From a virus (lineage: Duplodnaviria; Caudoviricetes): DNA of 44,442 bases. The notes under the pieces are model-generated. The model saw nothing but the letters and a program-made list of their open reading frames with translations. It had not been told where the DNA came from and searched no databases. Both the position numbers and the translations under genes were made by a program. The stretch covers positions 1 through 44,442 of IMG/VR virus record IMGVR_UViG_3300032332_002014; one strand, 5' to 3'. Each line of letters starts with the position of its first letter. Within the stretch, counting starts at the first letter, position 1. This document shows positions 3,966 to 24,604 of the stretch, piece after piece.

Positions 3966-4532
3966 ATGTTTCGCAGAAAAAAAATTAAAGACGAAGACTT
4001 TAAAAACGACCCTAATGCTGAAGAAGAGGATTTCGGATCTTTATGGGACGCACCTAAAGTAAAAAAGAAAAGAGTTCGTAGAACAAAAGAAGAACTTAAA
4101 CCGAACTATGTTGACCCCATAGAAATGGAGAATCTTATTATTCAGTACTATGAAAAAGGCGGTAAAGATATTCCTTCAGACTTAGCTGACATGATTCAAA
4201 AAATTGCTACGCGTCTCGGCTATGCACAAAACTTTATTAACTATTCATACAAGGAAGAAATGATCGGAGACGCTATTATTAAAATGATTACTGCTTTAAC
4301 ACGTCAGAGGTTTAAATGCAAATCAGGATATAACCCGTTCTCATATTTTACTAAAGTTGCTTATAGAGCTTTTCAAAATAGAATTAAAAAAGAAAAGAAA
4401 GAGCATGACACTATTCATCGATATCAAACCGAAGTCTATTCACTTCTTACCGAATCAGGTCAAATACCTGTTCAAAAAAATACTAAATTTGATACCGAGT
4501 ATGACGATTCTTTTCGTATTGAAAATCAGTAA
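3966..4532 (+). CDS. 55: late transcription sigma factor gp55
   Basis: NFINYSYKEEMIGDAI and NPFSYFT...AFQNRIKKEKK are gp55 signatures. The gene is adjacent to gp47. Confidence 0.88.
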   Translation: MFRRKKIKDEDFKNDPNAEEEDFGSLWDAPKVKKKRVRRTKEELKPNYVDPIEMENLIIQYYEKGGKDIPSDLADMIQKIATRLGYAQNFINYSYKEEMIGDAIIKMITALTRQRFKCKSGYNPFSYFTKVAYRAFQNRIKKEKKEHDTIHRYQTEVYSLLTESGQIPVQKNTKFDTEYDDSFRIENQ

Positions 4533-5593
4533 TGCATTTTAGTTCAAATAAAGTAGCTTGTATATCAGATATCCACCTTGGTGTTCATCAAAACTCTCAA
4601 GCTTGGCATAATATTGCTTTAGATTTTGCTCGTTGGCTGGATCAAGAGTTAAAATTAAGAGATATAAAAGACATTATTATAGCAGGAGATATCTTTCACA
4701 ATCGGCACGAAATCGGGGTTAACACTATTCATTGTGCCTATGAGTTCTTTGATATTCTAAGTAACTATAATATTGTAGCTATTACCGGTAATCACGATTG
4801 TTATTACAAAGATAAATCAGATATTAATTCTATCTCTATTCTCGATGGATATAAAAATGTCACTGTTTATAAAGAACTAATCACAGAGAATATTAACGAA
4901 AAAATATTTTGTTTTTGTCCTTGGGGTATACCTATAGAGGAGGTTACTACCTGTGATGTATTAATTGGTCATTTCGAAATTGTGAATTTTAAAATGAATA
5001 CTCATAAAGTGTGTGATCACGGTTTAGAGAGTAGTTCATTGCTTGATAAAACTAAGCTCGTTATTACAGGTCACTTTCATCTTCGCGAACATAGAAAGTA
5101 CCCGAAAGGTAAATCTATTTTATATCTAGGATCACCTTATGAGTTAGACTTTGGTGACAGGGATCAAGTGAAGGGTTTCACTATTCTTAATACTGATGAT
5201 CTAAGTGTTGAGTTAATAGAAAATAATGTAACCCCTAAACATAAAAAAATTAAGATTTCTGATCTTATTGACGGTAAAATTGCTTTAGAAAAAATTGGAG
5301 ATGAATTTACTAATAATTTTGTCAGTCTTTGCGTAGATAGAAGTGTTAATGAGCAAGTTCTTGGTGTAATGCTTTCTAAATTTAGTCAGTTTAAACCGAA
5401 ACATGTTAGAACGGATTTTAATATTTTTGAATCTGTACAATTATCAGCTACTGAACTCAATGAAGTTTCGATTGATATTGATACAGCTTTACACGAATTT
5501 GTAAATCTTTTAGATGTTAATGTACCGAAAAAAGATATACTAGATAAATGTATAGATCTATATAGAATATCACAAACAGTAAATGAGCATTAA
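4532..5593 (+). CDS. 47: recombination endonuclease subunit gp47 (Mre11/SbcD-like)
   Basis: Metallophosphoesterase motifs SDIHLG, GDIF, GNHD, GHFH and YLGSP. Confidence 0.92.
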   Translation: MHFSSNKVACISDIHLGVHQNSQAWHNIALDFARWLDQELKLRDIKDIIIAGDIFHNRHEIGVNTIHCAYEFFDILSNYNIVAITGNHDCYYKDKSDINSISILDGYKNVTVYKELITENINEKIFCFCPWGIPIEEVTTCDVLIGHFEIVNFKMNTHKVCDHGLESSSLLDKTKLVITGHFHLREHRKYPKGKSILYLGSPYELDFGDRDQVKGFTILNTDDLSVELIENNVTPKHKKIKISDLIDGKIALEKIGDEFTNNFVSLCVDRSVNEQVLGVMLSKFSQFKPKHVRTDFNIFESVQLSATELNEVSIDIDTALHEFVNLLDVNVPKKDILDKCIDLYRISQTVNEH

Positions 5594-6377
5594 AATTGGA
5601 GTAGGAATTATAACATGTGACAGACCTGATTATCTTAAAAAGCTAGTCAAGTCTCTTGACAGTATTTCTATAGATAAGCTCATTATTATTAATGACGGGG
5701 AAAAGCAATTAGATGGTGACAAAATAAAAATACATAATAATAATCCATCTAAGCAGGGTGTCGGTAAATCTAAGAATCAAGCATTAAGATACCTCAAAGA
5801 TTGTGATTATATTTTTCTTTTAGAAGATGATATTGTTATAAGAGATAAAACTGTTTTCGAAAAGTATATTGAAGCTTCAAAGTTATCTGGTATACAACAT
5901 TTTAATTTTGCTTTTCATGGTGTTGATAATTATCTACCTAATGGTCAACCAGCTGTTCGCTTAAGGTTAGATTACTCACCGACAATTTCAGTTTGTCTGT
6001 ACCCTAATGTATACGGCGCTTTTTCAATGTATACAAACAAATGTATTGAAGAAGTAGGCCCTATGGATGAGTTCTATTATAACGCTATGGAACATGTAGA
6101 TCATACGGCTAGTATTATTAAGGCAGGCATGCATCCTCCGTTTCGCTGGTTTGCAGATATTACAAATAGTAACAAATATATTGAAGAGATTGATAGAGCT
6201 CATTCAGGTTCTGAAATACGTAGAGATCAGAAGTGGATTGAGAACTTTCATAAGGCAGCAGATCATTTCGTAGAAAAATTTGGTTTTGATGTTCGTAACC
6301 CACATACTAAAACAGCTTCAAAAGAAGAAGTTGTAAATACCGTAAAACAAATAAAAAAACAATATGGACAAGAATAA
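5583..6377 (+). CDS. GT-A fold (GT2-like) glycosyltransferase
   Basis: GIITCDRPDYL, IIINDG, GVGKSKN, FLLEDD and EHVDH motifs. Confidence 0.8.
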   Translation: MSIKIGVGIITCDRPDYLKKLVKSLDSISIDKLIIINDGEKQLDGDKIKIHNNNPSKQGVGKSKNQALRYLKDCDYIFLLEDDIVIRDKTVFEKYIEASKLSGIQHFNFAFHGVDNYLPNGQPAVRLRLDYSPTISVCLYPNVYGAFSMYTNKCIEEVGPMDEFYYNAMEHVDHTASIIKAGMHPPFRWFADITNSNKYIEEIDRAHSGSEIRRDQKWIENFHKAADHFVEKFGFDVRNPHTKTASKEEVVNTVKQIKKQYGQE

Positions 6378-7140
6378 AATTGGTGTAGGTATAGTTACAT
6401 ATAATTCTGAAAGCTATTATAAAGTTTTATATGAATCTTTACCTTTTGATAAGATTCATACACTCGTTACCGTAAACGGAGGAGACAAATATAAAGATGA
6501 ATATAAAGGTAATTGGATACAGCATTCTGAAAATGTTTATCCATCTGTTTGTAGAAATGATTGTATAAACTTTCTTTTGCAAAGAAACTGTGAACATATC
6601 TTTATTATTGAAGATGATATGATATTAAAATCACCAGATATTTTTGACAAATATATCACAGCCTCAAAAGAATCAGGTCTCAAGTATTTTTCTTTTGTTT
6701 CTACATCTTGGGATTCCGGTATATCCGGTAAACGTATCCCTCGTTTAACCGTTGAGTATAGTAAAGATATTGGTATTTCTTTTTATCAAAATATGTGTAA
6801 TGAGTTTACATATCATCATAAAACTTGTTATGAAAAAGTTGGTTTATATGATACAAATTATCGAGACCCTTGGGATATAGATATGGCTTATAGAGAATCT
6901 CAGCAAGATTACTCCGCCCCTTTTTGGTGGTTTGCTGATGTTACTGGGTCAGATGATCTAATAATGAATAATCCTAATGCTGTATCCCGACTTCAGGGCG
7001 ATAGACCCGATGGTTCAAGAGAACAGCGTATTCAAAAAGAGTGGGAATATTTTATTAAAAAACACGGACGACATGTAACTCAAATACCAAATATTTCAAA
7101 AGAAGAAGTTATAGCTAAACTAAAAAAAATAAAATTATGA
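6364..7140 (+). CDS. GT-A fold (GT2-like) glycosyltransferase, paralog of the preceding gene
   Basis: GIVTYN, FIIEDD and VGLYD motifs. Shares KIGVGI, KYIxASKxSG, PFxWFAD and SKEEV with 5583..6377. Confidence 0.8.
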   Translation: MDKNKIGVGIVTYNSESYYKVLYESLPFDKIHTLVTVNGGDKYKDEYKGNWIQHSENVYPSVCRNDCINFLLQRNCEHIFIIEDDMILKSPDIFDKYITASKESGLKYFSFVSTSWDSGISGKRIPRLTVEYSKDIGISFYQNMCNEFTYHHKTCYEKVGLYDTNYRDPWDIDMAYRESQQDYSAPFWWFADVTGSDDLIMNNPNAVSRLQGDRPDGSREQRIQKEWEYFIKKHGRHVTQIPNISKEEVIAKLKKIKL

Positions 7141-7937
7141 AAATAATCATTGGAATTAATAATTTTAAAAAAGAGCAAGAGCTTAATCTCAGAGAAAAAA
7201 TGTGCATTGAGTCGCTTCATAAACTGAAACAAATATATCCAGATATTGAGCTTGTCAATCTTACTTTTGAAGATGAAAATTTTGCAGCACTAACTAACTT
7301 TACCAACATACATTGCCTTAAAAATATACCTATCAATATTACTGATAAAAAAATACCATTTGTTAACGAAATATTTGATAAACTCGCTAATATTTTTGCC
7401 GATTATTTTATTTTTATTAACAACGATATTTTAGTTTCTGATCGCTTTATTAAAAATATTTTAAAAAACCCTGAATACGACTGTTTTCCGGCAAGTAAAT
7501 TACACTTTATTAAATTAGATTCAATTGATGCTACTGATAGTATACCAGAATCTTTAAGTGTTCATGGCTTTGATGGTTTCGGCATTAAAAGTAATTGGTG
7601 GAAATTAAACTGCAATAATTTTAAACCTATGCTTTTAAGCCGGGCGTATTGGGATACTTATTTTTATAGTAAATGTCAACTCTACGGAAAATGTTTAACT
7701 CTTAACAAGCCTCCTGCGGTCATTTTTCATCTTGATCATAAAAGTACATCAATGGAAAACGACCCCGGTAATACCTTTAACGAACAGAACTTCGTACAAG
7801 ATAGCGATAATCTACCACAAAGATGGTTTCCTTATGTACAAAATATTTTGCTAAAACGCCCTGCACATCATAATATAAAATGGTACGTTCCCCTTATTAA
7901 CGAAACAGATTTAGAAAAAGAATATTTTAAAAAATGA
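7137..7937 (+). CDS. putative GT-A fold glycosyltransferase
   Basis: PFVNEIFD...FIFINNDI (DxD-like), GFDGF, YWD and FHLDH motifs, within the GT cluster. Confidence 0.55.
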   Translation: MKIIIGINNFKKEQELNLREKMCIESLHKLKQIYPDIELVNLTFEDENFAALTNFTNIHCLKNIPINITDKKIPFVNEIFDKLANIFADYFIFINNDILVSDRFIKNILKNPEYDCFPASKLHFIKLDSIDATDSIPESLSVHGFDGFGIKSNWWKLNCNNFKPMLLSRAYWDTYFYSKCQLYGKCLTLNKPPAVIFHLDHKSTSMENDPGNTFNEQNFVQDSDNLPQRWFPYVQNILLKRPAHHNIKWYVPLINETDLEKEYFKK

Positions 7938-8737
7938 ACATTACAGTCGCGCTTGCGCTTGATTATAAAAGAACAGACATAGCTCCGTTTTTAAACAGTT
8001 TTCAAAAATATTCATCAGGAGTGCTTTATTTAATTACTAATCAAATAAACATTCTTGAAAATAAAAAATATTCAAAAATAAAATTAGTTAACATTTTTGA
8101 TCTTATAAAACAGTTTAATATTAACATACATAATTTGACTGTCTTTAATCTAAAACCAGTAATTTTCTATCTTTTTTTAAAACAATACAAAACAAAAGTT
8201 GATATTAAAAAAGTAATACTAACTGACGTAGATCTTTTTTTTCAGTATGACCCTTTCGTATTACTTGATAAAATAAAAACAGAGACATTTTTAATCGCTG
8301 AAGAAGGAAAAAAGTTTTTTGAGTGTGATACTAATACAACGTGGTTTAACGCCGGGTATCACGAACAGTATGATAAAGTTAAAGATCAAAAAATTTTAAA
8401 TTGTGGTTTTACAGTAGGGTATTATGATGCAGTTCTTGACTATCAAAAACAAGTAGTAACAGAATTACAACATATTTTAGCTACCCGGCCTTATTTTGCA
8501 TATGATCAGGTTATTTTGAATGTTTTAACATATAGTACAAAAACTATAACCCCAACTATACTTCCTCACGGAAACCCCTACGTTGCACACATGCATTATC
8601 AGTCTCCTAATCTTCTTACACCGGAATATTTTACAAGTGAAATGCTCAACGAAGAAAAAAAACCGTACTGTGTTATTCACCAGTATAATGATAAAGAAAT
8701 AGCTAATAACTTTGTTCAAAAAAAATGGATATATTAA
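7934..8737 (+). CDS. putative GT-A fold glycosyltransferase
   Basis: VILTDVDLFFQYDPF, ILNCG, DQVILN and IHQY motifs. Confidence 0.7.
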   Translation: MNITVALALDYKRTDIAPFLNSFQKYSSGVLYLITNQINILENKKYSKIKLVNIFDLIKQFNINIHNLTVFNLKPVIFYLFLKQYKTKVDIKKVILTDVDLFFQYDPFVLLDKIKTETFLIAEEGKKFFECDTNTTWFNAGYHEQYDKVKDQKILNCGFTVGYYDAVLDYQKQVVTELQHILATRPYFAYDQVILNVLTYSTKTITPTILPHGNPYVAHMHYQSPNLLTPEYFTSEMLNEEKKPYCVIHQYNDKEIANNFVQKKWIY

Positions 8738-9474
8738 AAAAACAAAAAACACTCACTTTAGACGTATGGGGCGGTTTAGGTGATAATTTACAAGTGTCAA
8801 CTATACCGAGACGTTTTTATGAAAAATTTGGTTATAAGGGGGTGTATATTTCAAATAGTGTACCGTGGAGAAATAAAGAAATTAAAGAGTTAGTCTGGGA
8901 TTTAAACCCGTATATTGCAGGGTTTACAGACAAAAAAGGCGTTAATATTGCAGATGCAGGCCTAATTCAATACGACGGTACAACCCATTGGATAGCAAAT
9001 ATGGAAAAAATTTATCAGTTTACCGCTCCTTTTTCAAAAACTCCCGAAATATATTACGACATGTCCTCAAAAGATAACTTTAATGTTTGTAACAAAATTA
9101 TAGTTGATCTAACAGCAAGTAATGAAAATAATACAATGGATAAAACAAATTATCGTAAAAATATGAAGAAATACTTTGATCAACTTCAAGATAAAATTAC
9201 CATTGTTAGACTTAATAACATTAAAACAGATAAAACTTTTATTGACTATACAGATGAAATTATTAGCAGTAAAAACTACGAATTTATAGATATCAATAAT
9301 ATTTACGAGTATTGTCAAATTATTAAAAACTGCAAAAAATATATATGTAGTTTTTCAGGTAATCATTGCTTAGCTGCTGCTATCCGAAAAGACTTTACTT
9401 GTTTCGCTCCAAATATATACTACAATATGAAATATTTCATATTTGAATCTCAAATAACATATGCACTAATATGA
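8725..9474 (+). CDS. putative GT-B fold glycosyltransferase (GT9/GT11-like)
   Basis: N-terminal GGLGDNLQ, NPY, and C-terminal ICSFSGNHCLAAAI. Confidence 0.6.
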   Translation: MDILKKQKTLTLDVWGGLGDNLQVSTIPRRFYEKFGYKGVYISNSVPWRNKEIKELVWDLNPYIAGFTDKKGVNIADAGLIQYDGTTHWIANMEKIYQFTAPFSKTPEIYYDMSSKDNFNVCNKIIVDLTASNENNTMDKTNYRKNMKKYFDQLQDKITIVRLNNIKTDKTFIDYTDEIISSKNYEFIDINNIYEYCQIIKNCKKYICSFSGNHCLAAAIRKDFTCFAPNIYYNMKYFIFESQITYALI

Positions 9475-10340
9475 TTTCAATATATACACACCTTAGTCCA
9501 AATAAATTTTCATTTTTTTCTGAATTAGAACACTCAAACTACACTTTTTCTGATATACCTGAATATGCTATAGAGAGTTTTAAGCAAACAGAAAAACATC
9601 TTAAAACACCACCTATTATTTTAACAAATACAGACATAGATAAAAATTTTAAAAAAGAAATCGATGAATTTTATCAGTTATGTAAAAATGGTTTTCCTTC
9701 CTTTTATAAAGACCCATTTTGGCTAACAACCTTGTTACGTCTTTATGTAGTCTTTTTATATTGTGAAAAACATAATATTAATGAGTTTATACACTTAGAG
9801 TACGATAATTTAATATATTCTGATTTAAAAGAGCTTACTCACCTACCTCAATCACTGTATTTTACAAGAGTTGGACCCTTTTGTAGTTCAGCAGGTTTTG
9901 TTTTTTGTAACAGTTTAGAACATTTTAGGAAATTTATAGATAAAGTTAAAAGTCTTTTTATAAAAGGAGAAGAAACTGTTAAAAAATTTACTCAATATGG
10001 GCACTTATCTGAAATGATTTTAATCGATTTAATTTATACACATACAAAAGAGGTTATAGATTATCTGCCTATATTGCCTTTTTCACCTGGCAATGACAAT
10101 TTTGATAAATTAAATGTTTTATTTGATGGTGCATCGTATGGGCAATATTTAGGAGGCACTAATAACGGACATAATAAAGGCTGGCACGGACTACATCATT
10201 ATGTGGGCCAAGAAATTTCTAGAAATTCAATACAAATTATCTTTGAAGATAAACCATATATTTTTTTTAACAGTAAAAAAATACCAATTTTAAATCTCCA
10301 TATACACTCAAAAAAATTAAAAAATTTTGTAAATGATTAA
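9471..10340 (+). CDS. putative glycosyltransferase-like protein
   Basis: RL...HLEYDNL (DxD-like), SEM, FDGASYGQYLGG and NLHIHSK motifs, within the GT cluster. Confidence 0.5.
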   Translation: MISIYTHLSPNKFSFFSELEHSNYTFSDIPEYAIESFKQTEKHLKTPPIILTNTDIDKNFKKEIDEFYQLCKNGFPSFYKDPFWLTTLLRLYVVFLYCEKHNINEFIHLEYDNLIYSDLKELTHLPQSLYFTRVGPFCSSAGFVFCNSLEHFRKFIDKVKSLFIKGEETVKKFTQYGHLSEMILIDLIYTHTKEVIDYLPILPFSPGNDNFDKLNVLFDGASYGQYLGGTNNGHNKGWHGLHHYVGQEISRNSIQIIFEDKPYIFFNSKKIPILNLHIHSKKLKNFVND

Positions 10341-11112
10341 AGAAGAAATAATAACAGGTAATACCTTTAAAAATATTGCAGATGATTTTTTAGATGAAGA
10401 AAAGCCTTATATAGATATATCTAAAAAACCAAAAATTATTTTTTTAAAAACTGATTGGATTGAGCTTTTTAAACAAAAGGTGCTACCTCAGATAGACTAT
10501 TCTTTTAAACTTATAACACATAATGCTGATAGACCTGCTCCTTCAGGAAATATAGATTTATTAGAAGATTCTAGACTTATTAAATGGTACGGGATGAATT
10601 GTCAAATTCAGCATCCAAAACTTCAACCGATACCTATAGGAATAGCTAATGAAAAATGGCCTCACGGTAATAAAGATATTTTACTAGACGTTATAAACAC
10701 CAATATACCTAAAACAAATCTTTGTTATAGTAATTTTGAAATTACAACTAATTTTAATAAAAGAACTGAAGTACTCAACACAGTTAAAACAAAATCTTTT
10801 ATTGATATAGATATACAAAAACTATCTTTTAAAAAATATTTAAGTAAACTTAAAAGTTATAAGTTTGTTATATCTCCTCCTGGTAATAGTGTAGACTGTC
10901 ATAGAATTTGGGAAGCATTATATTTAGATGTTATACCTATAGTAGAAAAAAATATAGCTATGAATTATTTTTATGACCTACCTATTTTATTTGTGGATTC
11001 GTTTAATGAACTAACATATAATATGTTAGAAAAAGAATACACTAATTTTTTAAAAGTTAAAAAAGACAAAATCTTTTTACAGTATTATCAAAATTTATTA
11101 CACTATATATGA
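10333..11112 (+). CDS. exostosin/GT47-like glycosyltransferase domain protein
   Basis: SYKFVISPPGNSVDCHRIWEALYLDVIPIV motif, plus THNAD and PIPIGI. Confidence 0.75.
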   Translation: MIKEEIITGNTFKNIADDFLDEEKPYIDISKKPKIIFLKTDWIELFKQKVLPQIDYSFKLITHNADRPAPSGNIDLLEDSRLIKWYGMNCQIQHPKLQPIPIGIANEKWPHGNKDILLDVINTNIPKTNLCYSNFEITTNFNKRTEVLNTVKTKSFIDIDIQKLSFKKYLSKLKSYKFVISPPGNSVDCHRIWEALYLDVIPIVEKNIAMNYFYDLPILFVDSFNELTYNMLEKEYTNFLKVKKDKIFLQYYQNLLHYI

Positions 11113-11696
11113 ATACACCAACGCTATGGATAGGAGACGGTCCTTTTGCAAAAGACCCTTACGTAGAAAAAACTGTTACTAATTTAATTGACAAATATAA
11201 ATGCACTCATGCTGTTGAAACAGGTACTATGAAAGGTATTACAACAAAATGGTTATCAAAAAAATTTGAAAAGGTTTACACTATTGAGTTAGATGACTAT
11301 TATCATAACTATGCACAAGAGGCTTGCAAACCTTTTGAAAATATCTCCTTTATAAAAGGAGATTCTGTTTCTCAATTAACAAATATTTTACCTGAAATTG
11401 CAGATAAAAAATGTTTATTTTTTCTAGATGCACACTGTCATGCAGTATGTCCTACGCCCAGTGAACTTATTATTATTAAAAATATGAAAGTTTTTCCTGT
11501 GATAGTTATACATGATTTTTATGTGCCGGGAACAAACTTTGGTTGGGACTCATACCCTTCATTTGAATACAAGTGGGAAAATATCTCTAATTTAATTGAT
11601 GATATTTACGGTGCTAATAATTACGAGTACTTTTATAATACAGAAACTCATCCTGAAAGTTTTAATAGAGGGGTTGTCTTTATTGTACCAAAATAA
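11109..11696 (+). CDS. class I SAM-dependent methyltransferase
   Basis: VETGTMKG, VYTIE, GDS, FFLDAH and IVIHD motifs. Confidence 0.8.
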   Translation: MNTPTLWIGDGPFAKDPYVEKTVTNLIDKYKCTHAVETGTMKGITTKWLSKKFEKVYTIELDDYYHNYAQEACKPFENISFIKGDSVSQLTNILPEIADKKCLFFLDAHCHAVCPTPSELIIIKNMKVFPVIVIHDFYVPGTNFGWDSYPSFEYKWENISNLIDDIYGANNYEYFYNTETHPESFNRGVVFIVPK

Positions 11697-12379
11697 TGAA
11701 TGTTCAAATATATATTTGTCATTACCCACCTTTAATAGATAGGAAGCTATATCTAGATACAGTTTTACCTTCTTTAAACATACCGTATAGTTATTTTAGC
11801 TATTTTAATCGCAAAAATATTACACCCTACGAAAAATACTTTAGCACAGATAGTAAAGTTTTGGAGCATAAAAATAATTTTATGCCACATAAGTGTTACG
11901 AGCCTTTAAAATCTCCATCGATAAAAGCTACAAATCTAGAACATGTACGTATATACCGCGAAATTCAAACAAACAATTCAGATTACCATTTAATTTTGGA
12001 AGATGATGCAGTACTATCTGATAATTTTAAACAAAAGCTTTTTAACACTATTGAAAATTTACCTAATGATTGGGATGTTGTATATGTAAGTAGTGGTTGC
12101 GAAAACCGACCTGTTATACGGAGCCTCGATGGTTCTAATTTTGCAAAAATAGAAACAAAAACAAGTTGGACAGCAAATGGTTATTTAGTTAAAAAAGAAA
12201 CAGCTAAAAAATTTATCGATAATATAAGACCAATGATTTTACCTATCGATTTTGAACTTAATTTTTTACAAAATTATTTAAATATGAACGTTTACTGGCT
12301 TGTTGAACCTATAGTTTTTGAAGGTTCAAATCCTGTATCAGGATTAAACTACAAATACAACACAAGTCAAATTCGCTAA
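11696..12379 (+). CDS. GT25-family glycosyltransferase
   Basis: YICH...DR, H...LILEDDA, LPNDWDVVY, TANGYLV and PID motifs. Confidence 0.8.
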   Translation: MNVQIYICHYPPLIDRKLYLDTVLPSLNIPYSYFSYFNRKNITPYEKYFSTDSKVLEHKNNFMPHKCYEPLKSPSIKATNLEHVRIYREIQTNNSDYHLILEDDAVLSDNFKQKLFNTIENLPNDWDVVYVSSGCENRPVIRSLDGSNFAKIETKTSWTANGYLVKKETAKKFIDNIRPMILPIDFELNFLQNYLNMNVYWLVEPIVFEGSNPVSGLNYKYNTSQIR

Positions 12380-12382
12380 ATT

Positions 12383-13174
12383 ATGATGCAACTAACAACC
12401 CGTATTTATCCAGAAGAGTATTTAGAGGAGATTAAAAAAACCCTTGAGATTTGGACACACAAAATTAATACAAGCAATAACTTTGCTTTTATTAAATTCG
12501 GGGATGGTGAATTTTTTTGCATGATGGGTACGAGTGGCTCTAACTGCGATCAACACCCTTACACCCTTGATCTACAAAAGAAGCTTATCAATGCTTGGAA
12601 CTATTATTGTGATAATAAACAACACGATGTGTATATTGCTGAATGGGCTGACCAGCCAGGATCTTTTGAAATGCCACAAAATATTCTACCTCAAAAAAAT
12701 ATCAATAACCCTGTTTTTGCTTTTTATAAACAAATAACAGAAAACAAAAATCTTAATTTTAAATTAGTAAATTTTGAAATTTTATTACAAAATACACTTA
12801 CACAACAAAAGTATAATTTTTATAAAGCTATTAAAAACTCTAAACGTAAAAAAATATTTATAGGACCTGAAAGACTATCTCCTGTCCAGAAATTTTTAAA
12901 TGTAGATATACATATACAAGTACCTCTAATAAACACTTTTTCAAAATATAATGAAATTTTACTACACTGTAAACAAACCTTTACACAAAATGCAATTTAT
13001 ATTTTTAGTAGCGGCATGCCTACAAAAGCCTTAATATTTGAATTATTACAAGAAATAAAAGACATTACTTGTTTAGATGTAGGTAGCGGATTTGATGCAT
13101 TATTTGTAGGTGGTACAAGAGAGGGCCAGCTCGATAAAGCAATAGTTACATCTTTTTATAAAGATTTATTATGA
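12383..13174 (+). CDS. GT-D fold (DUF1792-like) glycosyltransferase
   Basis: FIKFGDGE, SSGMPTK and LDVGSGFD motifs. Confidence 0.7.
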   Translation: MMQLTTRIYPEEYLEEIKKTLEIWTHKINTSNNFAFIKFGDGEFFCMMGTSGSNCDQHPYTLDLQKKLINAWNYYCDNKQHDVYIAEWADQPGSFEMPQNILPQKNINNPVFAFYKQITENKNLNFKLVNFEILLQNTLTQQKYNFYKAIKNSKRKKIFIGPERLSPVQKFLNVDIHIQVPLINTFSKYNEILLHCKQTFTQNAIYIFSSGMPTKALIFELLQEIKDITCLDVGSGFDALFVGGTREGQLDKAIVTSFYKDLL

Positions 13175-13953
13175 GTAAAAATTTTGTATATATTTCAAAC
13201 TATCAAGGCCGTTTAGGGAATCATATATTTCAATTTGCTTGGGCAAAAGCCGTTTCCTTGAAGCTTAATAAAGAACTTTCAGTACCAGGTATAGCATGCG
13301 ATCCCGAAAAAGATGAAGGTTCTTTGTTTCTAAAAACTCATTTTTTAAGACATATTAAACCCTCTGATAAATGCATAAATGATTTCGTAGAAATAAATGA
13401 TAGTAACTCCGAACTACCTTTTACCAGACCTGATTTATTTGCAAATAAATCTATAAAGGGAACAGGCTTTTTTCAAAACTATCACTTGTTTAAAACTTAT
13501 AAAAACGAAATTAAACCTTATTTTGAGTTAAAAACATGCTCTAACATGAAAAATACTCTAGGCATACATATTAGATTAGATGACTTCCCTCAACAATTTC
13601 GTTGCCCGTTAGAATATTACATAAAATGTATTGAACAAACGTCTTGCGATCATATTCGTATTTTTACAGATGAACCTACACATCCTTTTATTACAACATT
13701 AAAATTAAAATTTAACAATCTAACGGTTGATAACTCTTATACGTGTACAGGTCAAAATAATTTTGCGGTTTTAAGTGAAATGTCTTCATGTGATGAAATT
13801 GCCATTTCGAAAAGTTCTTACTCATGGTGGGCTGCATATTTGAGCAATGCTCAAAAAGTCTATTTCCCTTCTACACCAAACAACACAGAATATTTTGCTG
13901 ATGAATTTTATTTTGTAGATAATGAGCAAAGATATATTAAAATAACTGTTTAG
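13171..13953 (+). CDS. GT11 alpha-1,2-fucosyltransferase-like protein
   Basis: GRLGNHIFQ, GFFQ, GIHIRLDD, IFTD and SSYSWWAAYL motifs. Confidence 0.85.
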   Translation: MSKNFVYISNYQGRLGNHIFQFAWAKAVSLKLNKELSVPGIACDPEKDEGSLFLKTHFLRHIKPSDKCINDFVEINDSNSELPFTRPDLFANKSIKGTGFFQNYHLFKTYKNEIKPYFELKTCSNMKNTLGIHIRLDDFPQQFRCPLEYYIKCIEQTSCDHIRIFTDEPTHPFITTLKLKFNNLTVDNSYTCTGQNNFAVLSEMSSCDEIAISKSSYSWWAAYLSNAQKVYFPSTPNNTEYFADEFYFVDNEQRYIKITV

Positions 13954-13961
13954 TTTTATAT

Positions 13962-14573
13962 ATGTTTTACTCGTTTTCTAAAATTTTACAAAATTTTAAC
14001 ATAACCCCGACGGGCGTTATACATGTTGGCGCACATAACGGCAGTGATGTGCATTTTTACTTAAAACAAAACATTTCCCACGGACATTTTTTTGAACCTA
14101 TACGTTCTAATTTCTTACAAGTAGTAGAAAATTGTAAAAATACAAATTACAAATGTTATAATGTTGCATTAGGATGTGAAATCGGGGAGGCTCAGATGTT
14201 TACAGAACAAGATAATCGAGGAGAATCTTGTTCAATACTTGAACCACAACTACATTTAAATCTGTTCCCGCATATAAAATTTACAGGGAAAGAAAAAGTG
14301 GTATTAAACACGCTAGATAATTACAAAATTACAGATTGCAATTTTTTAAACATGGATGTGCAAGGGTACGAACTAGAAGTCTTAAAGGGAAGTACAAAAA
14401 CACTTAATAATATACAAATTCTTTACACTGAAATTAATCGAGCTGAGGTTTACAAAAATTGTGCGCAATTACATCAGCTAGTAGACTTTTTAGCACCGTA
14501 CGGATTTCAGCTTATAGAAACAGATTGGTATCAAGACGGGTGTTGGGGAGACGGCCTTTTTATTAAAAAATAA
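13962..14573 (+). CDS. FkbM-family methyltransferase
   Basis: IHVGAHNG, FEP, TLD, MDVQGYELEVLKG and WGDGLF motifs. Confidence 0.88.
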   Translation: MFYSFSKILQNFNITPTGVIHVGAHNGSDVHFYLKQNISHGHFFEPIRSNFLQVVENCKNTNYKCYNVALGCEIGEAQMFTEQDNRGESCSILEPQLHLNLFPHIKFTGKEKVVLNTLDNYKITDCNFLNMDVQGYELEVLKGSTKTLNNIQILYTEINRAEVYKNCAQLHQLVDFLAPYGFQLIETDWYQDGCWGDGLFIKK

Positions 14574-14574
14574 A

Positions 14575-15411
14575 ATGATCACATTTACATCACTTGGATC
14601 TCACGGACGACTAGGCAATCAGTTTTTTCAATATGCCTTTTTGATAGGTGTTAGTAAGAAATATAATTTACAAATTTGCTTACCCGATTTAAACGCAAAA
14701 GTATCGAATAATCAAACATGCCTATTAAACAGTTTTAATATTGAATATAAACCACTCAATTTTAATGATATTAAATATTTTTGTCAAGAAATTGAATTAA
14801 AAAGTAATAGTATTTTTAATACATATAACCCACAAAATATAGAAAACATACATAGTGGTACAGATTTTCTAGGTTTATATCAGAGTTATAAATATTGGAT
14901 TGATTATAAAGATGAAGTTAAAAAGCAATTCACAGTTAAAAGTATAGAAATTTTAGATACTGCTAAAAACAAAATAAACGAATTAAAGAAACAATATAAC
15001 AAACCTATTATAGCAGTACATCTTCGCAGAGGAGATGTTACTCAGTATATTGATTATAATGAGTATAAAAAATATCTTAGCACTGTTTTAAAAAATATAA
15101 AAGATTCAAAAAATTGCTTTTATTATATATTTACAGGTGGATCTGCTGACCCTATTGAGGATAAAAAAGATATAGAATGGGTAAAGGAATTTTATAAAGA
15201 GTTACCTTACTTTGAAGTATGTCAAACAGGTAACCCGATATTAGACTTTGCTCTTATACAAGAATGTGATCAGATTGTACTTGGCTATATATCTACTTTT
15301 GCCTGGTGGGCCGCTTTTCTTTCTGAAAAACCTACTTATGTCCCACAACATTTTAATATTAATAGTGAGCTTAGGTTAAATTACTACCCAGAAACATTTA
15401 ATATATGTTAG
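14575..15411 (+). CDS. GT11 alpha-1,2-fucosyltransferase-like protein
   Basis: GRLGNQFFQY, GLYQSYKY, VHLRRGD and STFAWWAAFL motifs. Confidence 0.87.
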   Translation: MITFTSLGSHGRLGNQFFQYAFLIGVSKKYNLQICLPDLNAKVSNNQTCLLNSFNIEYKPLNFNDIKYFCQEIELKSNSIFNTYNPQNIENIHSGTDFLGLYQSYKYWIDYKDEVKKQFTVKSIEILDTAKNKINELKKQYNKPIIAVHLRRGDVTQYIDYNEYKKYLSTVLKNIKDSKNCFYYIFTGGSADPIEDKKDIEWVKEFYKELPYFEVCQTGNPILDFALIQECDQIVLGYISTFAWWAAFLSEKPTYVPQHFNINSELRLNYYPETFNIC

Positions 15412-16136
15412 CAACCTTTACACAAACATACGGTGATAATAGAAATATTATATATAGTGGTAAAAATCTTGATATAGGAGATATCTTTATACGTAAAAAT
15501 ATACCTATTAATTTCTACTCTTTTCATAATACACAAAATAAGGACAGTATTTTAAGTAACAACTATTTTAAAGAAATAAATTTTAATATAATTGAGTATA
15601 ATAATATTAATTTCCCGGAAACTCTTAAACAAACACTTCATTACTTAAAAAAACAAAATATTAAAAAGGTGTTGTTATTGCAAGATGATGTATTTTGTAG
15701 CATACAGGATACATCTTTACTAAAAGACTTTTTAGATGTTTTAAATACTGATTATGAATGTCTTAATTTAGAGCTAAGTTTTGATTTTATTAACAGTAAA
15801 CAAAATTTAATAAGAAACATTAATAAAATTAATAATACTTTTACAGTGCATGAAGTATTTACTCACGACTATAAACCTACAGGGTTTTTTCCTTTTGATG
15901 ATGGTCCCTGCTTAGCTTCTATAGATTTTCTTTTAAACGAAGTGTACGATGATCACTACTTTGCTCACGACAATATATGGGATGCAGAAAACTATTTAAA
16001 TAGAAAATTTTCTGAAAGAGAAAAAACCCTTAGACCTGTCTTAAATATGCCTGTTTATCGTAGATACAATATTGTAGGAAAAAACTACAATATAAGTCAC
16101 GTACATGAACTTGTTAACTGCTTAAGCAAAAAATAA
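15405..16136 (+). CDS. putative GT-A fold glycosyltransferase-like protein
   Basis: VLLLQDDVF (DxD-like) and IWDAE motifs, within the GT cluster. Confidence 0.5.
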   Translation: MLATFTQTYGDNRNIIYSGKNLDIGDIFIRKNIPINFYSFHNTQNKDSILSNNYFKEINFNIIEYNNINFPETLKQTLHYLKKQNIKKVLLLQDDVFCSIQDTSLLKDFLDVLNTDYECLNLELSFDFINSKQNLIRNINKINNTFTVHEVFTHDYKPTGFFPFDDGPCLASIDFLLNEVYDDHYFAHDNIWDAENYLNRKFSEREKTLRPVLNMPVYRRYNIVGKNYNISHVHELVNCLSKK

Positions 16137-16763
16137 TTCAGTAATATTATTATGCGACTTATTTTCAATAGCATTTTTAACTATAACACTAGGGTCAATA
16201 TACCAATCTTCAAAACAGTTACCGTTGTGAGTTACGTCACTAACAACAAGTTTGTAATTTAATTTTTTTAAAAACTCTCGAGATGCTTGTTGAACTTCAA
16301 CACCGAAACGATACAAATCGTGTTCAAATGTTAAAACTGAAAAACGATAGTCTTCGTGAGGTAGCTGATATAAAGCTTTTAAAGTATTGGTAGAAGGTTC
16401 TACGTCAAGAGATATATAATCAATCTGCTTAGGATATTTTAATGCTTTAAATAGTGTTTTGTAGTCAAATTTTGTAGCATCCGCCTCAATACACTTATTA
16501 ACACGTTTTTGATTATAGGCAGCTACCATACCACTATCAATATCAAAAGCTGTACCTGTCCACTCAAAATCTTTTTCAAGTAAATAAGTGTTATTGAGAT
16601 AACAAGGTTCATAGCTACCTACATCTATATAAACACCGTTTTTTTTACCGTTAAGCATTGTTAGTACAAACATATCCTGTAATGCTTGAGAATAGTTTTG
16701 TTTAATATTTTCAGAGCCGTCAAATTTAACTTTTAACCTTTTAAATAAATCTTTTGTAAACAT
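16122..16763 (-). CDS. FkbM/Methyltransf_21-like methyltransferase, inverted within the island
   Basis: YSQALQD, YIDVGS, NNTYLLE...WTG, IDYISLDVE, TFEHD and EDWY motifs. Confidence 0.8.
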   Translation of the reverse strand: MFTKDLFKRLKVKFDGSENIKQNYSQALQDMFVLTMLNGKKNGVYIDVGSYEPCYLNNTYLLEKDFEWTGTAFDIDSGMVAAYNQKRVNKCIEADATKFDYKTLFKALKYPKQIDYISLDVEPSTNTLKALYQLPHEDYRFSVLTFEHDLYRFGVEVQQASREFLKKLNYKLVVSDVTHNGNCFEDWYIDPSVIVKNAIENKSHNNITELFFA

Positions 16764-16771
16764 TGTTAATA

Positions 16772-16777
16772 TATTTA
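16772..16777 (-). promoter_or_regulatory. late promoter core TAAATA for the inverted methyltransferase
   Basis: The minus strand reads gctaaatatattaacaATG (8-nt gap). Confidence 0.5.
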
Positions 16778-16843
16778 GCTCATTATATGAAAAAGTAAAA
16801 TTTTTTACTGGAGTATATTTCGAAACAATATATTATAGATGAT

Positions 16844-17617
16844 ATGTTCGAAAGCGATTATGCAAATTATAGCTCTATTTGTCAGCAAGCTGTAGATAAT
16901 GACGAAATGTTTAAAACATTTAAAGATAATCCTGTTTATCGTTCGATTCTTGAACACGTTAATGTTGAACAAGCACAGGTTTATTTGTCCCTTATTAGCA
17001 CAAATGAACACTTTAATCAAATTCCTTGGGACAAAATTTTTATTAATGATACAATTGGCGGCCCTCAAATTAATAATTTTATTGTTAATAACAAGGAATA
17101 CAATGTTTCGCCATCCAATTTTAGGTACGTACATTTTGGTTTAGAGATACTTAAAAATTTAAAACAATGCAACAACAATACACCTAATATTATTGAAATA
17201 GGTGGAGGTTACGGCGGACAATGTTATATAATTCACCTGTTAGCACCACTCTACGGTATTAAAATTAAGAGTTACACTATTTTAGATCTGCCAAGTCCGG
17301 TTGCACTTGCAAATAAATTTATAAGCACTATTAGTCCTGATATTAATGCCAAAGCGTATGTGTATAGTAATGTTGATATAACATATCAAAGTATTAACTA
17401 TCTTGTTTCAAACTACGCATATAGTGAGCTTGATAAAAATACTAGAGATGTATATGCTGAAAAAGTTCTGTGTAAAACAGCAGCAGGCTATCTTGCATGG
17501 AATACCGCAGAATCTTTAGATAGTTTTTTTAGTACAGTTGTAACTAAAATTACTGAAGAGGTACCTAAAACCAGCCCAAACAATTTTATTGTAACGTATG
17601 CGTCTAGTCAGCTTTAA
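16844..17617 (+). CDS. putative sugar O-methyltransferase
   Basis: ILEHV, RY, IIEIGGGYGGQ, ILDLP and SNYAYSEL motifs. Confidence 0.75.
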   Translation: MFESDYANYSSICQQAVDNDEMFKTFKDNPVYRSILEHVNVEQAQVYLSLISTNEHFNQIPWDKIFINDTIGGPQINNFIVNNKEYNVSPSNFRYVHFGLEILKNLKQCNNNTPNIIEIGGGYGGQCYIIHLLAPLYGIKIKSYTILDLPSPVALANKFISTISPDINAKAYVYSNVDITYQSINYLVSNYAYSELDKNTRDVYAEKVLCKTAAGYLAWNTAESLDSFFSTVVTKITEEVPKTSPNNFIVTYASSQL

Positions 17618-19394
17618 AGCATTATCTATACGTAATTTTTTATCGGTAGGGGAAACACCCGTTGTAATTAATTTTCAAACCGGTGTAAACGTTATTACCG
17701 GAACCAATTACGATAAAGAGGATTCAAAAAACGGTGTCGGAAAGTCTACTATAGCTGATGCTTTGTACTTTGCTTTGTTCGGAACAACTATTAGAGAGCT
17801 TTCCAAAGACTTAATAGTCAATTCTTTCACAAAGAAAAAATGCGAAGTAGTACTAGATATTGATATTGAAAACGGAAACGGTTTGTCCCAGTACCGTATC
17901 ACAAGAACTATTAATCCTACTAAGTGTCATATGACTAAGAACGGGGAAGACGTAACCCGTTCCACGATGGCTAAGACGAATGAGTATATTCAAAAGCTCA
18001 TTATGTCTAATGGCAAAATCTTTCAAAATTCTGTTATTATGACTATCAATAACACTGTGCCCTTTATGGCTCAGTCTAAAATTGATAAAAGAAAATTTAT
18101 CGAAAGTATTCTTAGTCTTGAAATCTTCTCTGATATGTTGTCAAAAGCTCGAGAAGAGCACAACGTGCTTAAAAAAGACTACGAGGTACTTTTTACTAAA
18201 ATCGAGGGTATTGAAAAAGGTTACAAGTTTAATAAAGAACAGCTCGACGCTTTTGAAGAAAACAAAAGACAAAAAATTGAAGCACTTGTAAAACGTATTG
18301 AAGAGAATAAACAAAAGATTGAAGACCTTAAAAAAGAAATTAAAAAGCTTCCTGATGATGTCATTGAAAAGCTCAATACAAAAGAAGAACAAATTAATAA
18401 CGAGCTAAAACAAATACGAGAACTTTATAAGGCTGCTTATAATAACTTAGCTGATGTTAAGAGTAAGATTAGTCATGCTGAAGGTCAGCTAAAAGAAATC
18501 GACAAAGTCGGTGCTATTTGTACAACCTGCAAAAGAGCGTACTCTGAAGACGATCTTAAACATAAAGAAGCTAATAAAAAAGAACTTAATAATAAATTAA
18601 AAGATCTTAATAAAGTACTTGATATAGCTCAAAAAGCTCTCGATAAGATTAATACTGATCAGGCTAAAAAAGAAAAAGAACTTAAAGATATTCAGGATAA
18701 GAAAAATGTCGTAAGAGATGTTATAAACAGTAATAACAACACTAGTACAAAGATAACCCTTATTGAAGAAAATATTCAAAGTCTCTTAAAAGAAATTGAG
18801 CAGGTTAAAAATGAAACTAATAAAGCTCTAGAAGAGGTAGTAAAAGACTTAGAAGAGAAACTCAAAACAGGTAAACAAGAACTAGAAAAACTAGATCATG
18901 ATTGCTCAGTTCTCGAAGTAGTTAGGTTTGTTGTATCTGAAGAAGGAGTTAAATCATACATTGTTAAAAAAATCTTAGCTGTGCTTAATGGCAGAATGGC
19001 TTATTACCTAGATAAACTTCATGCTAATTGTTTGTGTCAGTTTAATGAATTCTTTGATGAGTTAATCACGGATGAAAAAAGTGAACAAAAGTCATACTTT
19101 AACTTCTCAGGTGGTGAAAGAAAAAGAATTGACCTAGCTTGTTTATTTTCATTCTTAGATATTCGTAGAATGCAAGGGGATGTACATTTCTCTACTATTT
19201 TTTACGATGAACTGTTAGACTCTTCTTTAGATGATAAAGGTGTAGAGCTTGTTTTAGACGTCTTAAGAGAGCGCGCCCAGATGTATAATGAAAACTGCTA
19301 CATTATTACACACCGTGGTACCACAATCACAGAAAAAATAGATAACACAGTTTTTCTGGAAAAGCGCAACAATTTCACTTATTTATTATCATAA
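17598..19394 (+). CDS. 46: recombination endonuclease ATPase subunit gp46 (Rad50/SbcC-like)
   Basis: RNFLSVG, NGVGKST, coiled coil with a CTTC zinc hook, FSGGE and DELLDSSLD. Confidence 0.95.
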   Translation: MRLVSFKALSIRNFLSVGETPVVINFQTGVNVITGTNYDKEDSKNGVGKSTIADALYFALFGTTIRELSKDLIVNSFTKKKCEVVLDIDIENGNGLSQYRITRTINPTKCHMTKNGEDVTRSTMAKTNEYIQKLIMSNGKIFQNSVIMTINNTVPFMAQSKIDKRKFIESILSLEIFSDMLSKAREEHNVLKKDYEVLFTKIEGIEKGYKFNKEQLDAFEENKRQKIEALVKRIEENKQKIEDLKKEIKKLPDDVIEKLNTKEEQINNELKQIRELYKAAYNNLADVKSKISHAEGQLKEIDKVGAICTTCKRAYSEDDLKHKEANKKELNNKLKDLNKVLDIAQKALDKINTDQAKKEKELKDIQDKKNVVRDVINSNNNTSTKITLIEENIQSLLKEIEQVKNETNKALEEVVKDLEEKLKTGKQELEKLDHDCSVLEVVRFVVSEEGVKSYIVKKILAVLNGRMAYYLDKLHANCLCQFNEFFDELITDEKSEQKSYFNFSGGERKRIDLACLFSFLDIRRMQGDVHFSTIFYDELLDSSLDDKGVELVLDVLRERAQMYNENCYIITHRGTTITEKIDNTVFLEKRNNFTYLLS

Positions 19395-19398
19395 CCTT

Positions 19399-20658
19399 AT
19401 GTCTCAGTTCATTGTTCAACAATCCGGTATCCCCAACTTAATGGGAGCTCCAATTGGGTTACCACCCTTTATTCCTACAACAACACAGGTACTACCTGTT
19501 AGAGGAGGAACCGAGTTACCACCACCTGAAATTCCTGGGCAAGGTCTTCCAAGAGCTATTAACTATCTTGCTGACTATGGAGGCTGTTCGTGGTATCGCT
19601 GCATGGCACCGAACTTAATGCTCAATCTATATCAGAAGGCCGTAATGCTAGAACTAACCACAATGGTTCTTGACCCGAGATTTTATGCTGGTGTTAAAGC
19701 AGTTAAAATTCAACGTCAAGCAACTCCTATTCAAAGAGACTTCGTTAAGATGCTTAAAGAGATTTCTCGTCAAATGCCTGATGGAGGGTTTAAGCTTATT
19801 TACGAAATTGATGATATTGTTTTTAGAGAAGATATACCAGATTTCAATAGAAATAAAGACGCTTTCGTTGCAGATGAAATCCGCAATTCGATTTTAGAAA
19901 TTCTCGATATGTGTGATGAAATTACAGTAACCTGTGATTTCATGAGAGATTATTTTAATGAAAAAACTGGCACTAAAAAAGCTACAGTTATTCCAAATTA
20001 CTTACTTAAGTGGTGGTTTGATAGATATTATAATCTCGGAGATCTGGTTAAAAACTTTGAGAAAAACAAAAAGAAACCAGTTGTATCTATTTTTGCTTCA
20101 GGTACACATGTTGATGTCACCAATCGCACAAATCAAAATGATGATTTTGCAAAAGTGGTTCCTGCTATTATTAAATCTCGTAAAGACTTTAAGTATCAGT
20201 TCTATGGCTGTTACCCTTTACCCTTAAAACCGTTTATTGATAGAGGAGAAATTATCTTTAAAGAGTGGACTCCTCTTCCTGAGTTCCCCGGAGCTATGGC
20301 TGAATCCGGTACACAATTAACTTTTGCTGCTCTACAAGACAATAACTTCAACCGCGCTAAGAGTAATATTAAGCTACTCGAAGCCGCCGCACTAGGTATT
20401 CCTTGTGTGTGCCCAGATATGTGTACATACAAGGATGCCTTCTTAAAATACAATACTGCAGATGAGTTTATTGATTGTATTAAAACTGCTACTAAGAATC
20501 AGTCTGTTTATGCTGATCTTTGTAAGAAGTCTAGAGCATATGCCGATAACTTCTGGTTGGAAGATGAAAAGAATCTTATGAAGCATCATGAGGCTTATTT
20601 TACCCCTTACGGATCCCCAGATCGGAAATATTTGCTTGAGACTAATCCCAAGTCATAA
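19399..20658 (+). CDS. GT-B fold glycosyltransferase adjacent to the DNA polymerase
   Basis: DYGGCSWYR, IQRQ, YEIDD, VIPNYL and FNRAKSNIKLLEAAALGIP motifs. Pro-rich N-terminus. Confidence 0.8.
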   Translation: MSQFIVQQSGIPNLMGAPIGLPPFIPTTTQVLPVRGGTELPPPEIPGQGLPRAINYLADYGGCSWYRCMAPNLMLNLYQKAVMLELTTMVLDPRFYAGVKAVKIQRQATPIQRDFVKMLKEISRQMPDGGFKLIYEIDDIVFREDIPDFNRNKDAFVADEIRNSILEILDMCDEITVTCDFMRDYFNEKTGTKKATVIPNYLLKWWFDRYYNLGDLVKNFEKNKKKPVVSIFASGTHVDVTNRTNQNDDFAKVVPAIIKSRKDFKYQFYGCYPLPLKPFIDRGEIIFKEWTPLPEFPGAMAESGTQLTFAALQDNNFNRAKSNIKLLEAAALGIPCVCPDMCTYKDAFLKYNTADEFIDCIKTATKNQSVYADLCKKSRAYADNFWLEDEKNLMKHHEAYFTPYGSPDRKYLLETNPKS

Positions 20659-23234: not shown

Positions 23235-24065
23235 ATGCTTATCTCACACGAAACACCCGTATCGTTACTTCCTTACTCCTGGAGCTATAATGACTATGAT
23301 TATTGTTTAGTACACTTACTTCCTGAGAATCAAAAGTACAAAGACTTTTATTTTAAATCCGTTGAGCATGGACGTAGAGTACTTTTAGATAATTCTATTT
23401 TTGAGCTAGGCACAGCATTTGATCCAGATCAGTTTGCATATTGGGTTAAAGAGCTTAAACCCTACGAGTACGTTATCCCGGATGTATTAGAAGATGTCAC
23501 TAATACTTGCATGTCTTTAAATAACTTCTTAACAAAGTATCCTGATTTACCTGGTCGTAAGATAGGTGTTGTTCAAGGTAAGTCATATCAAGATATTGTT
23601 GATTGTTATAAGTATGTAGCGCCAAGAGTAGATAAAGTAGCTATTTCTTTTGACTACTCTTATTATCTTGACAATTACGTTTATGGGGATCTTAACTTAC
23701 CAGGTTATATTAATAAGCTTGAAGAAAACAAGTGGTTTAAGTATGCTTTAGGCCGGGTCAAGCTGTTAAATGATCTTTACAATGATGACGTTCTAGATGT
23801 TGAAAAACCACATCATCTTCTTGGGTGTAGTGTTCCTTGGGAGTTTGCCCTTTATAAGGATAACGATCTTGCAGAGTATATTGAAACTATTGATACGTCT
23901 AACCCTATTGTTGCAGGTATCTTAGGTAAAAAATACGAACCTAAATACGGTCTATCAGAAAAGTGGTCGGTTAAGCTTATTGACTTTATTGATGCTGAAT
24001 TAACTGAGCAGCAAATTGCTGATTCATTTTATAACGTAACGCAATTTAGACAGTTTTGCCGATGA
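23235..24065 (+). CDS. dpdA: TGT-fold guanine transglycosylase-like protein (DpdA3-like)
   Basis: TIM-barrel TGT-like motif order: LLDNSIFELG, VIPDV, GVVQG, HHLLGC, TIDTSNP. Co-located with QueF and the formyltransferase. The subfamily call is by inference. Confidence 0.7.
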   Translation: MLISHETPVSLLPYSWSYNDYDYCLVHLLPENQKYKDFYFKSVEHGRRVLLDNSIFELGTAFDPDQFAYWVKELKPYEYVIPDVLEDVTNTCMSLNNFLTKYPDLPGRKIGVVQGKSYQDIVDCYKYVAPRVDKVAISFDYSYYLDNYVYGDLNLPGYINKLEENKWFKYALGRVKLLNDLYNDDVLDVEKPHHLLGCSVPWEFALYKDNDLAEYIETIDTSNPIVAGILGKKYEPKYGLSEKWSVKLIDFIDAELTEQQIADSFYNVTQFRQFCR

Positions 24066-24595: not shown

Positions 24596-24604
24596 TAGAG
24601 AGAT

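Follow-up and report, generated by a model that had tools for sequence, protein, structure and literature searches.

Large glycosyltransferase (GT) gene clusters in aquatic T4-like phages and glycosylation of phage virions have both been published. In the accessible text of PMC12363180, PMC11256854 and PMC12619734 (relating Freeman et al., 2023), mycobacteriophage virion O-glycosylation genes (Che8 108-110, Corndog 35-38, Myrna 234/238) encode soluble GTs and a methyltransferase; the virions of Myrna, Che8 and Corndog are glycosylated, and Che8 gp110 and Corndog gp38 are named essential (PMC12363180). The available parts of two further sources describe many small GTs (GT2, GT11, GT25, GT10, GT8) in a hypervariable region, namely in the pelagimyophage host-recognition cluster (PMC7029224) and in cyanophages P-SSM2, S-SCSM1 and S-SCSM2R, the last with 13 GTs, called possibly the highest number in a marine phage (PMC12801897). 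GT clusters of aquatic T4-like phages have long been read as modifiers of host lipopolysaccharide (LPS) without experimental test. In giant viruses (chlorovirus, Mimiviridae), soluble viral GTs and methyltransferases make a host-independent virion glycan. Here we analyzed the virus record IMGVR_UViG_3300032332_002014 (Duplodnaviria; Caudoviricetes), a stretch of 44,442 nt referred to as the window, in which 16 genes (I1 to I16) fill the interval between the DNA-repair genes gp47 and gp46. We concluded that this island is one allele of a swappable cassette whose products, acting in the host cytoplasm, probably decorate the phage's structural proteins with a strain-specific and likely O-methylated sugar chain. 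A literature search, with subscription journals and preprint supplements outside its coverage, found no paper on the gp47-gp46 slot.

The locus differs from the described systems in size and position. The mycobacteriophage operons have two to four genes, whereas up to 17 occupy the slot here, in a T4-like myophage whose host is probably Gram-negative and whose glycan is deduced from the genes. The pelagimyophage and cyanophage GTs lie among tail-fibre genes (VrlC to gp14) or are scattered, whereas this slot lies in the replication block, is fused to gp47 and gp46, and has a fixed first gene and polarity; the VrlC-gp14 position does not apply to it, and no fibre gene was found among the annotated slot families. 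The boundary genes, the island genes and a conserved GT that follows gp46 are as follows.

4532-5593, + strand: gp47 (SbcD/Mre11-like nuclease), left boundary; PHROG 100, E 1e-65; 11-nt overlap with I1
5583-6377, + strand: I1, conserved first GT-A enzyme; PHROG 2456/1579 family (PHROG 2456, E 2e-23); model with predicted local distance difference test (pLDDT) 94 and GT-A matches
6364-7140, + strand: I2, I1 paralog (32% identity); PHROG 2456, E 1e-16
7137-7937, + strand: I3, probable GT-A; nearest named ESM cluster GT2, score 0.93, with only 143 shared features
7934-8737, + strand: I4, GT-A (nucleotide-diphospho-sugar transferase) with invariant D98-x-D100; own E 0.034
8725-9474, + strand: I5, invariant GLGDN start, reminiscent of GT11/GT-B enzymes
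9471-10340, + strand: I6, GT-A fold (GT8/GT24-like); AlphaFold2 pLDDT 94
10333-11112, + strand: I7, RXYLT1/GT47-like GT; PF24785, E 1.6e-8, above cut-off
11109-11696, + strand: I8, weakly matched S-adenosylmethionine (SAM) methyltransferase; PF00398, E 0.009, and NCBIfam Erm-type, 8e-6, both far below cut-offs
11696-12379, + strand: I9, GT25; PF01755, E 5e-15
12383-13174, + strand: I10, GT-D-fold-like GT; PF08759, E 1.4e-5, 25.5 bits, just below the cut-off of 27
13171-13953, + strand: I11, GT11 (fucosyltransferase family); PF01531, E 4e-7; PHROG 2644, E 2e-22
13962-14573, + strand: I12, FkbM methyltransferase; PF05050, E 5e-17; TIGR01444 above cut-off
14575-15411, + strand: I13, GT11; PF01531, E 6e-16
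15405-16136, + strand: I14, invariant Q93-D94-D95
16122-16763, - strand: I15, inverted FkbM-like methyltransferase; 29% identity to the N-terminal FkbM domain of a protein in related locus L008, E 5e-19
16844-17617, + strand: I16, NanM-type putative sugar O-methyltransferase; TIGR04371, E 3.5e-13, above cut-off
17598-19394, + strand: gp46 (SbcC/Rad50-like), right boundary; PHROG 77, E 5e-104; 20-nt overlap with I16
19399-20658, + strand: conserved GT-B between gp46 and DNA polymerase; PHROG 7162, E 4e-20

The 16 open reading frames (ORFs) filling 5583-17617 are intact, encode 195-289 aa and, apart from the inverted I15, lie on the + strand. From gp47 to gp46, 13 of the 17 junctions overlap, three have gaps of 1-8 nt and one has 80 nt, as the first-pass annotation had described for an island of mostly overlapping or abutting genes. 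The GC content is 29.1% in the island, 31.8% in the left flank and 35.5% in the right flank. We rejected an assembly artefact, since a contig from another study's run covers island positions 9736-17807 (285 differences, ∼96.5% identity) and therefore supports the distal gene order, and the same architecture recurs in relatives. No membrane segment was found in any of the 16 ORFs by hydropathy scan (highest 19-residue value per ORF, 0.52-1.36), and Pfam and NCBIfam scans of the island gave no match to a nucleotide-sugar enzyme, flippase or polymerase. The earlier description of a soluble, transport-free assembly set with a cytoplasmic acceptor, encoding no sugar-donor synthesis or membrane protein within the island, is supported on these points.

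We surveyed 41 intervals, one of them from the window, that had both boundary genes; they were drawn from 143 related loci after loci lacking one end and many near-duplicates had been removed by hand (some near-identical pairs remained). Three intervals were empty, 11 held a single I1-family gene and 27 held 5-17 genes. Among the 101 families found, that of I1 was present in 38 intervals, I3 in 18, I6 in 12 and I9 in 7; where a slot is filled, the I1 family nearly always comes first and I2 and I3 usually come next, and the remainder is swapped among relatives. Relatives at 80-85% gp47 identity have 1-5 of the window's 16 genes, whereas one at 66% has nine. Over 300 pairs of large islands (pairs not independent), gene content and gp47 identity were correlated with a rho of 0.32, and the median Jaccard index was 0.06 at 78-97% and 0.14 at 55-72% gp47 identity. 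Slot content thus tracks core-gene kinship only weakly, and both the fixed architecture of the slot and the swapping of its alleles were observed directly. The first-pass annotation had presented the island as an insertion separating two genes; we rejected a one-off insertion, and the island is instead an allele at a slot that is fixed in place, hypervariable in content and headed by a conserved gene. In two relatives a LAGLIDADG homing endonuclease gene with TAAATA upstream lies between I1 and I2 (L030:11863-12654 and L020:11848-12630).

A family scan of the island pool from related loci (one representative each of most families; 134 proteins, 12 of them from outside the slot) identified GT2, 6, 7, 8, 10, 11, 17, 25, 31, 34, 47, 61 and GT4-like enzymes, many methyltransferases, nucleotide-sugar enzymes and many blanks, and no transporter. 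Hydropathy reached at least 1.9 in five of 723 pool proteins, which belong to the epimerase and dehydroquinate-synthase families, and no membrane or export protein was found among the 723; in a control, 15 of 229 proteins of genome G002 scored as membrane candidates. Wzx, Wzy, Wzz, an ABC exporter and a phosphoglycosyl transferase were absent from every annotated allele. Bacterial O-antigen and capsule loci likewise occupy a fixed chromosomal slot, start with conserved genes, exchange their distal genes and have lower GC, and one I1 homolog sits in such a locus; the membrane flippase, polymerase, exporter or membrane GT expected of an O-antigen locus or a serotype-conversion cassette was found neither in the window nor in the 723 pool proteins. 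Sister alleles hold epimerases, aminotransferases and nucleotidyltransferases, so dependence on host donors is allele-specific. The idea that the island relies on host sugar donors is a conjecture for this allele: the record is estimated at 21% complete, and donor-making genes occur in sister alleles and, as a dehydratase/epimerase, elsewhere in the genome of one complete relative.

Direct GT support was obtained for nine of the 12 non-methyltransferase ORFs (I1, I2, I4, I6, I7, I9, I10, I11 and I13). For I3, which has no Pfam GT match, the support is indirect and the assignment probable, and for I5 and I14 none was found, so that two of the roughly 12 GT-like ORFs counted earlier lack an assignment. 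I4 exceeds the PF03407 cut-off through its homologs only (two of 11 passed). I5 has 672 homologs, with no Pfam family in any of the 120 matches listed, no match among PDB sequences and an HHalign result of only 8.9% with the GT11 family; none of the six I14 homologs has a Pfam family. The predicted I6 structure resembles the catalytic domain of UGGT (VIA Z 12.4, root-mean-square deviation 3.2, 195 residues aligned). Its top BFVD matches are giant-virus GTs and it matches the PBCV-1 capsid GT at Z 11.1, although cellular GTs score equally high; the likeness of the I1 and I6 models to giant-virus glycosylation enzymes, whose hosts are eukaryotic, is at fold level only. Profile searches against PDB sequences with I4, I6, the GT-B, I5 and I14 (I15 as a single sequence) gave nothing useful. 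Among the four proposed SAM methyltransferases, I12 and I16 exceed curated cut-offs, I8 is weak (a homolog matches RMNT_CmcI, E 0.004) and I15 is assigned via its homolog only. O-methylation and possible fucosylation of the product, both proposed earlier, follow from the FkbM/NanM and GT11 family names and are to be read as suggestions.

The GT-B after gp46 is retained even in members with an empty slot and is likely part of the island pathway. Its profile matches Bas62_0047 (E 2e-15) and Zuko gp5 (E 3e-22). I1 itself had no match in cultured phages at E 1e-5; at E≤10, 555 of 559 cultured-phage matches were GTs of myco(lici)bacterium phages, the best at E 6e-5 to 1e-4. The I1-family profile (56 sequences; E values at Z 50,000) spans the whole N-terminal domain of Myrna gp234 (E 4.6e-24, positions 4-212), to which I2 is also homologous, and matches ShiLan gp104 (9e-20), GTs of Aeromonas phages, a GT of Cronobacter phage ENT47670 (2e-25) that directly follows the major tail gene, and, distantly, phi92-like Bas62_0048 (E 9e-6), which has at least 127 records at ≥60% identity. 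Both conserved families of the clade (PHROG 2456 and 7162) lie side by side in phi92-like coliphages (Justusliebigvirus/Phapecoctavirus), in a four-GT block next to primase and polymerase (Bas62, L174:3595-6771). The position in the replication block is common to both systems, whereas the phi92-like block is small and conserved and the slot described here is hypervariable. Our literature search found no functional study of Stephanstirmvirinae/phi92 GTs among the papers listed; the homology would allow the acceptor to be tested in E. coli K-12. In some members a PF11397 gene (Skp1-type GlcNAc transferase family, E 1e-37, a protein-modifying family) adjoins the GT-B or the polymerase gene (L058:10391-11422, L119 and L134).

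The first-pass annotation had named virion protein, DNA and a host surface glycan precursor as possible acceptors; these are not equally open, as the comparative evidence strongly lowers DNA and favors virion protein. We counted for the latter the I1 profile homology to Myrna gp234, given that Myrna virions are glycosylated. Families of other alleles match the N-terminus of Che8 gp108 (1.5e-40), Che8 gp109/Corndog gp37 (3e-6) and the Corndog gp35 methyltransferase (1.5e-12), and the profile of the I9 family weakly matches Che8 gp110 (E 7e-5). In ENT47670, Corndog and Zuko, homologs adjoin genes for the tail or head. The motif TAAATA, presumably a gp55 late promoter by its likeness to T4's TATAAATA, shows 14- and 19-fold enrichment upstream of genes in the two relatives with complete genomes, and most of the genes so marked are structural. 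All three inverted island genes have it at -5 to -25 (14 nt upstream of the I15 start), as compared with 20 of the 487 island genes read forward and 0-3% of replication genes; the shuffle rates for the three inverted genes were 0.086, 0.127 and 0.060, a joint chance of about 7e-4. Inverted island genes need their own promoter, and we counted the motif before all three for a virion acceptor. TAAATA also precedes 11 of the 12 GT-B copies listed from single-gene-slot loci, which are related and not independent. In addition, related single-gene-slot loci have an inverted HtrL/YibB-family gene between gp55 and gp47 (L036:7803-8816, - strand), with TAAATA upstream in nine of 18 distinct copies.

Several observations weigh against a virion acceptor. 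At E≤0.01 no gp110-type enzyme was found in the two complete relatives, and beyond the weak I9 link no close clade-wide counterpart was found; in Myrna the gp110-type enzyme is gp238, not gp234, and I1 did not match Che8 gp108-110. The inverted-gene sample is only three, one of them lacking a family match. TAAATA precedes only 24 of 62 distinct GT-B copies, the window copy not among them, and the forward operon, coupled to gp47 in the replication block, does not begin with a conserved late motif. GTDB gave two I1 homologs, the second on a phage-like contig; the top one (42% identity over 216 aa, E 1e-51) lies in a surface-polysaccharide locus with Wzz, Wzy-like and Wzx-like genes in an Ignavibacteriales metagenome-assembled genome (MAG) and is closer to I1 than Myrna gp234 is (26%). 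I1 is therefore probably a sugar-on-sugar enzyme of a family not tied to protein acceptors. Ser/Thr-rich structural proteins are present but usual for such phages, and the glycan product is itself predicted from genes. The same bacterial homolog fits remodelling of the host surface, in which lipid-linked O-antigen, LPS core or glycoprotein precursors would be modified at the cytoplasmic face and then displayed by host exporters, blocking superinfection or grazing. GT25, GT11, GT8 and GT10 are LPS-type families, the operon is probably middle-timed, and this interpretation is put forward, as a hypothesis, for the pelagimyophage and cyanophage clusters in the available text of PMC7029224 and PMC12801897. 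We nevertheless consider it unlikely: a lytic phage would need 10-12 GTs for rebuilding, not tweaking, a surface within one infection, and the late motif on inverted island genes and the gene families common to virion-glycosylation operons also speak against it. Host flippases and polymerases, moreover, select their substrates. Less likely still is another cytoplasmic acceptor, i.e., a free or lipid-linked oligosaccharide or host proteins (defence or metabolic enzymes, for example), giving a decoy released at lysis or an intracellular effect. An all-soluble set lacking export genes is compatible with this, and the analysis found no structural protein directly linked to the island, but serotype-like swapping of a long outer set better suits an exposed, lasting surface, and the homologs beside tail or head genes in the three phages named above also speak against it.

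Hypermodification of DNA, with the GT-B and I1 placing sugars on a modified base and the island extending them, is the least probable alternative and in our view improbable. In its favor are the island's place among replication genes and the GT-B-like character of the arabinosyl/hexosyl transferases that act on DNA in RB69, DLP3 and RL38J1 (accessible text of PMC13326640); I1 was dropped as a DNA arabinosyltransferase of the RB69/DLP3 type, as it is a GT-A enzyme. Also on this side, a GT-A family of DNA enzymes (PHROG 842) shows a weak relationship to Myrna gp234 and Bas62_0048. In the parts seen of PMC13326640 and bioRxiv 2023.12.21.572611, the DNA glycosylation known so far requires a hydroxylated pyrimidine. 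No enzyme that would make one was found: PF00303 (thymidylate synthase), PF12851 (TET/JBP; no positive control among 14 control genomes) and PF00145 (C5-methyltransferase) were absent from all five records searched, two of them complete and the window's at 21%. DNA glycans described in the accessible literature stop at trisaccharides, and phi92-like phages, which have I1 and GT-B homologs, are exceptionally restriction-sensitive despite putative glycosylation machinery (available text of PMC8594841). Palindrome avoidance was absent from four records (mean observed/expected 0.97-1.04), a result that any DNA protection, DpdA3 among them, would explain and that does not separate the acceptors. 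The window has a DNA-modification cassette apart from the island.

23235-26094, + strand: DpdA3, DpdN-like formyltransferase, kinase and QueF; 44% and 48% identity to DpdA3 and DpdN of Flavobacterium phage immuto_2-6A
31619-32284: FolE

The cassette has the gene order of immuto_2-6A, in which formyl-preQ1 replaces guanine fully (accessible text of bioRxiv 2023.04.13.536721). Full replacement of guanine by this formyl-capped base is predicted for the window phage and counts against sugar on its DNA; the window, from a record 21% complete, showed no QueC, QueD or QueE. A DpdA3-like gene was found in five of five records. In G002 a divergent one stands directly before a GT gene (PF13712) and a DUF366 gene (L149:4807-6796); this pair, which speaks for DNA as an acceptor, would be compatible with a possible sugar-decorated 7-deazaguanine. 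G002 has QueD, QueE and FolE; QueF was not seen there.

For the favored virion acceptor, we infer the order of steps, the sugars and the benefit, as well as the acceptor itself, as follows. The clade-wide GT-B and/or I1 would start the chain at Ser/Thr residues in capsid, tail or fibre proteins, I1-I3 would assemble a shared core glycan, the variable GTs (GT47-, GT25-, GT-D- and GT11-like) would lengthen and branch it, and the methyltransferases would cap the strain-specific outer part. The selective role might be an altered particle surface, analogous to an O-serotype change in bacteria, acting against binding to non-host surfaces, grazers or proteases, or tuning host attachment. Tentatively, and with clearly less confidence than in the cassette as such, we suggest a jumbo T4-like clade with true virion serotypes, in which a universal GT-B and I1-I3 core glycan on structural proteins is extended by a horizontally swapped set of up to ∼14 enzymes to an outer chain of O-antigen scale, entirely in the cytoplasm. 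If the slot makes a virion coat, the glycans on lake and sea phage particles would vary as much as bacterial O-antigens do, with consequences for attachment, grazing and persistence. The two-family core in phi92-like phages would then mean that common laboratory E. coli phages have overlooked glycosylated virions. Small soluble GTs and sugar methyltransferases can also be drawn from the 100-odd slot families.

The gene order of the window is T4-like: uvsY, uvsW, gp55, gp47, the island, gp46, GT-B, DNA polymerase, the 7-deazaguanine cassette, uvsX, gp41, gp32, clamp, terminase and tail genes. No close cultured phage was found (top cultured gp46 match, 28% identity), and no tRNA genes were found in the window. 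Scans for sigma-70 promoters (92 vs. 98.8) and terminators (6 vs. 7.6) gave chance levels. Two related genomes are complete at 217-218 kb. This size, together with ClpA/B, PhoH, UvsW, Hsp20 and core GTs, matches the description of moraphages, whose core includes four GT groups in the available text of PMC12619734; the clade may be moraphages, a likeness drawn from described features and not from sequence comparison to that lineage. A Saprospiraceae MAG holds a 5.6-kb contig of the same clade (L183; uvsW, gp55, gp47 and I1 at 84%), a weak host hint, as misbinning is possible. In G002 (L150:17970 to L151:6451), a sulfotransferase gene (PF03567) and unassigned ORFs of 250-290 aa neighbor a lectin-domain gene and a fibre-like gene and may form a second block for glycan tailoring among structural genes. 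Four loci have a heme oxygenase gene after DNA polymerase (L110:15655-16233). Two GIY-YIG endonuclease genes occur in the window.

1176-1595, - strand: GIY-YIG endonuclease gene
26456-27148, - strand: GIY-YIG endonuclease gene between the 7-deazaguanine cassette and uvsX, with TAAATA at -11

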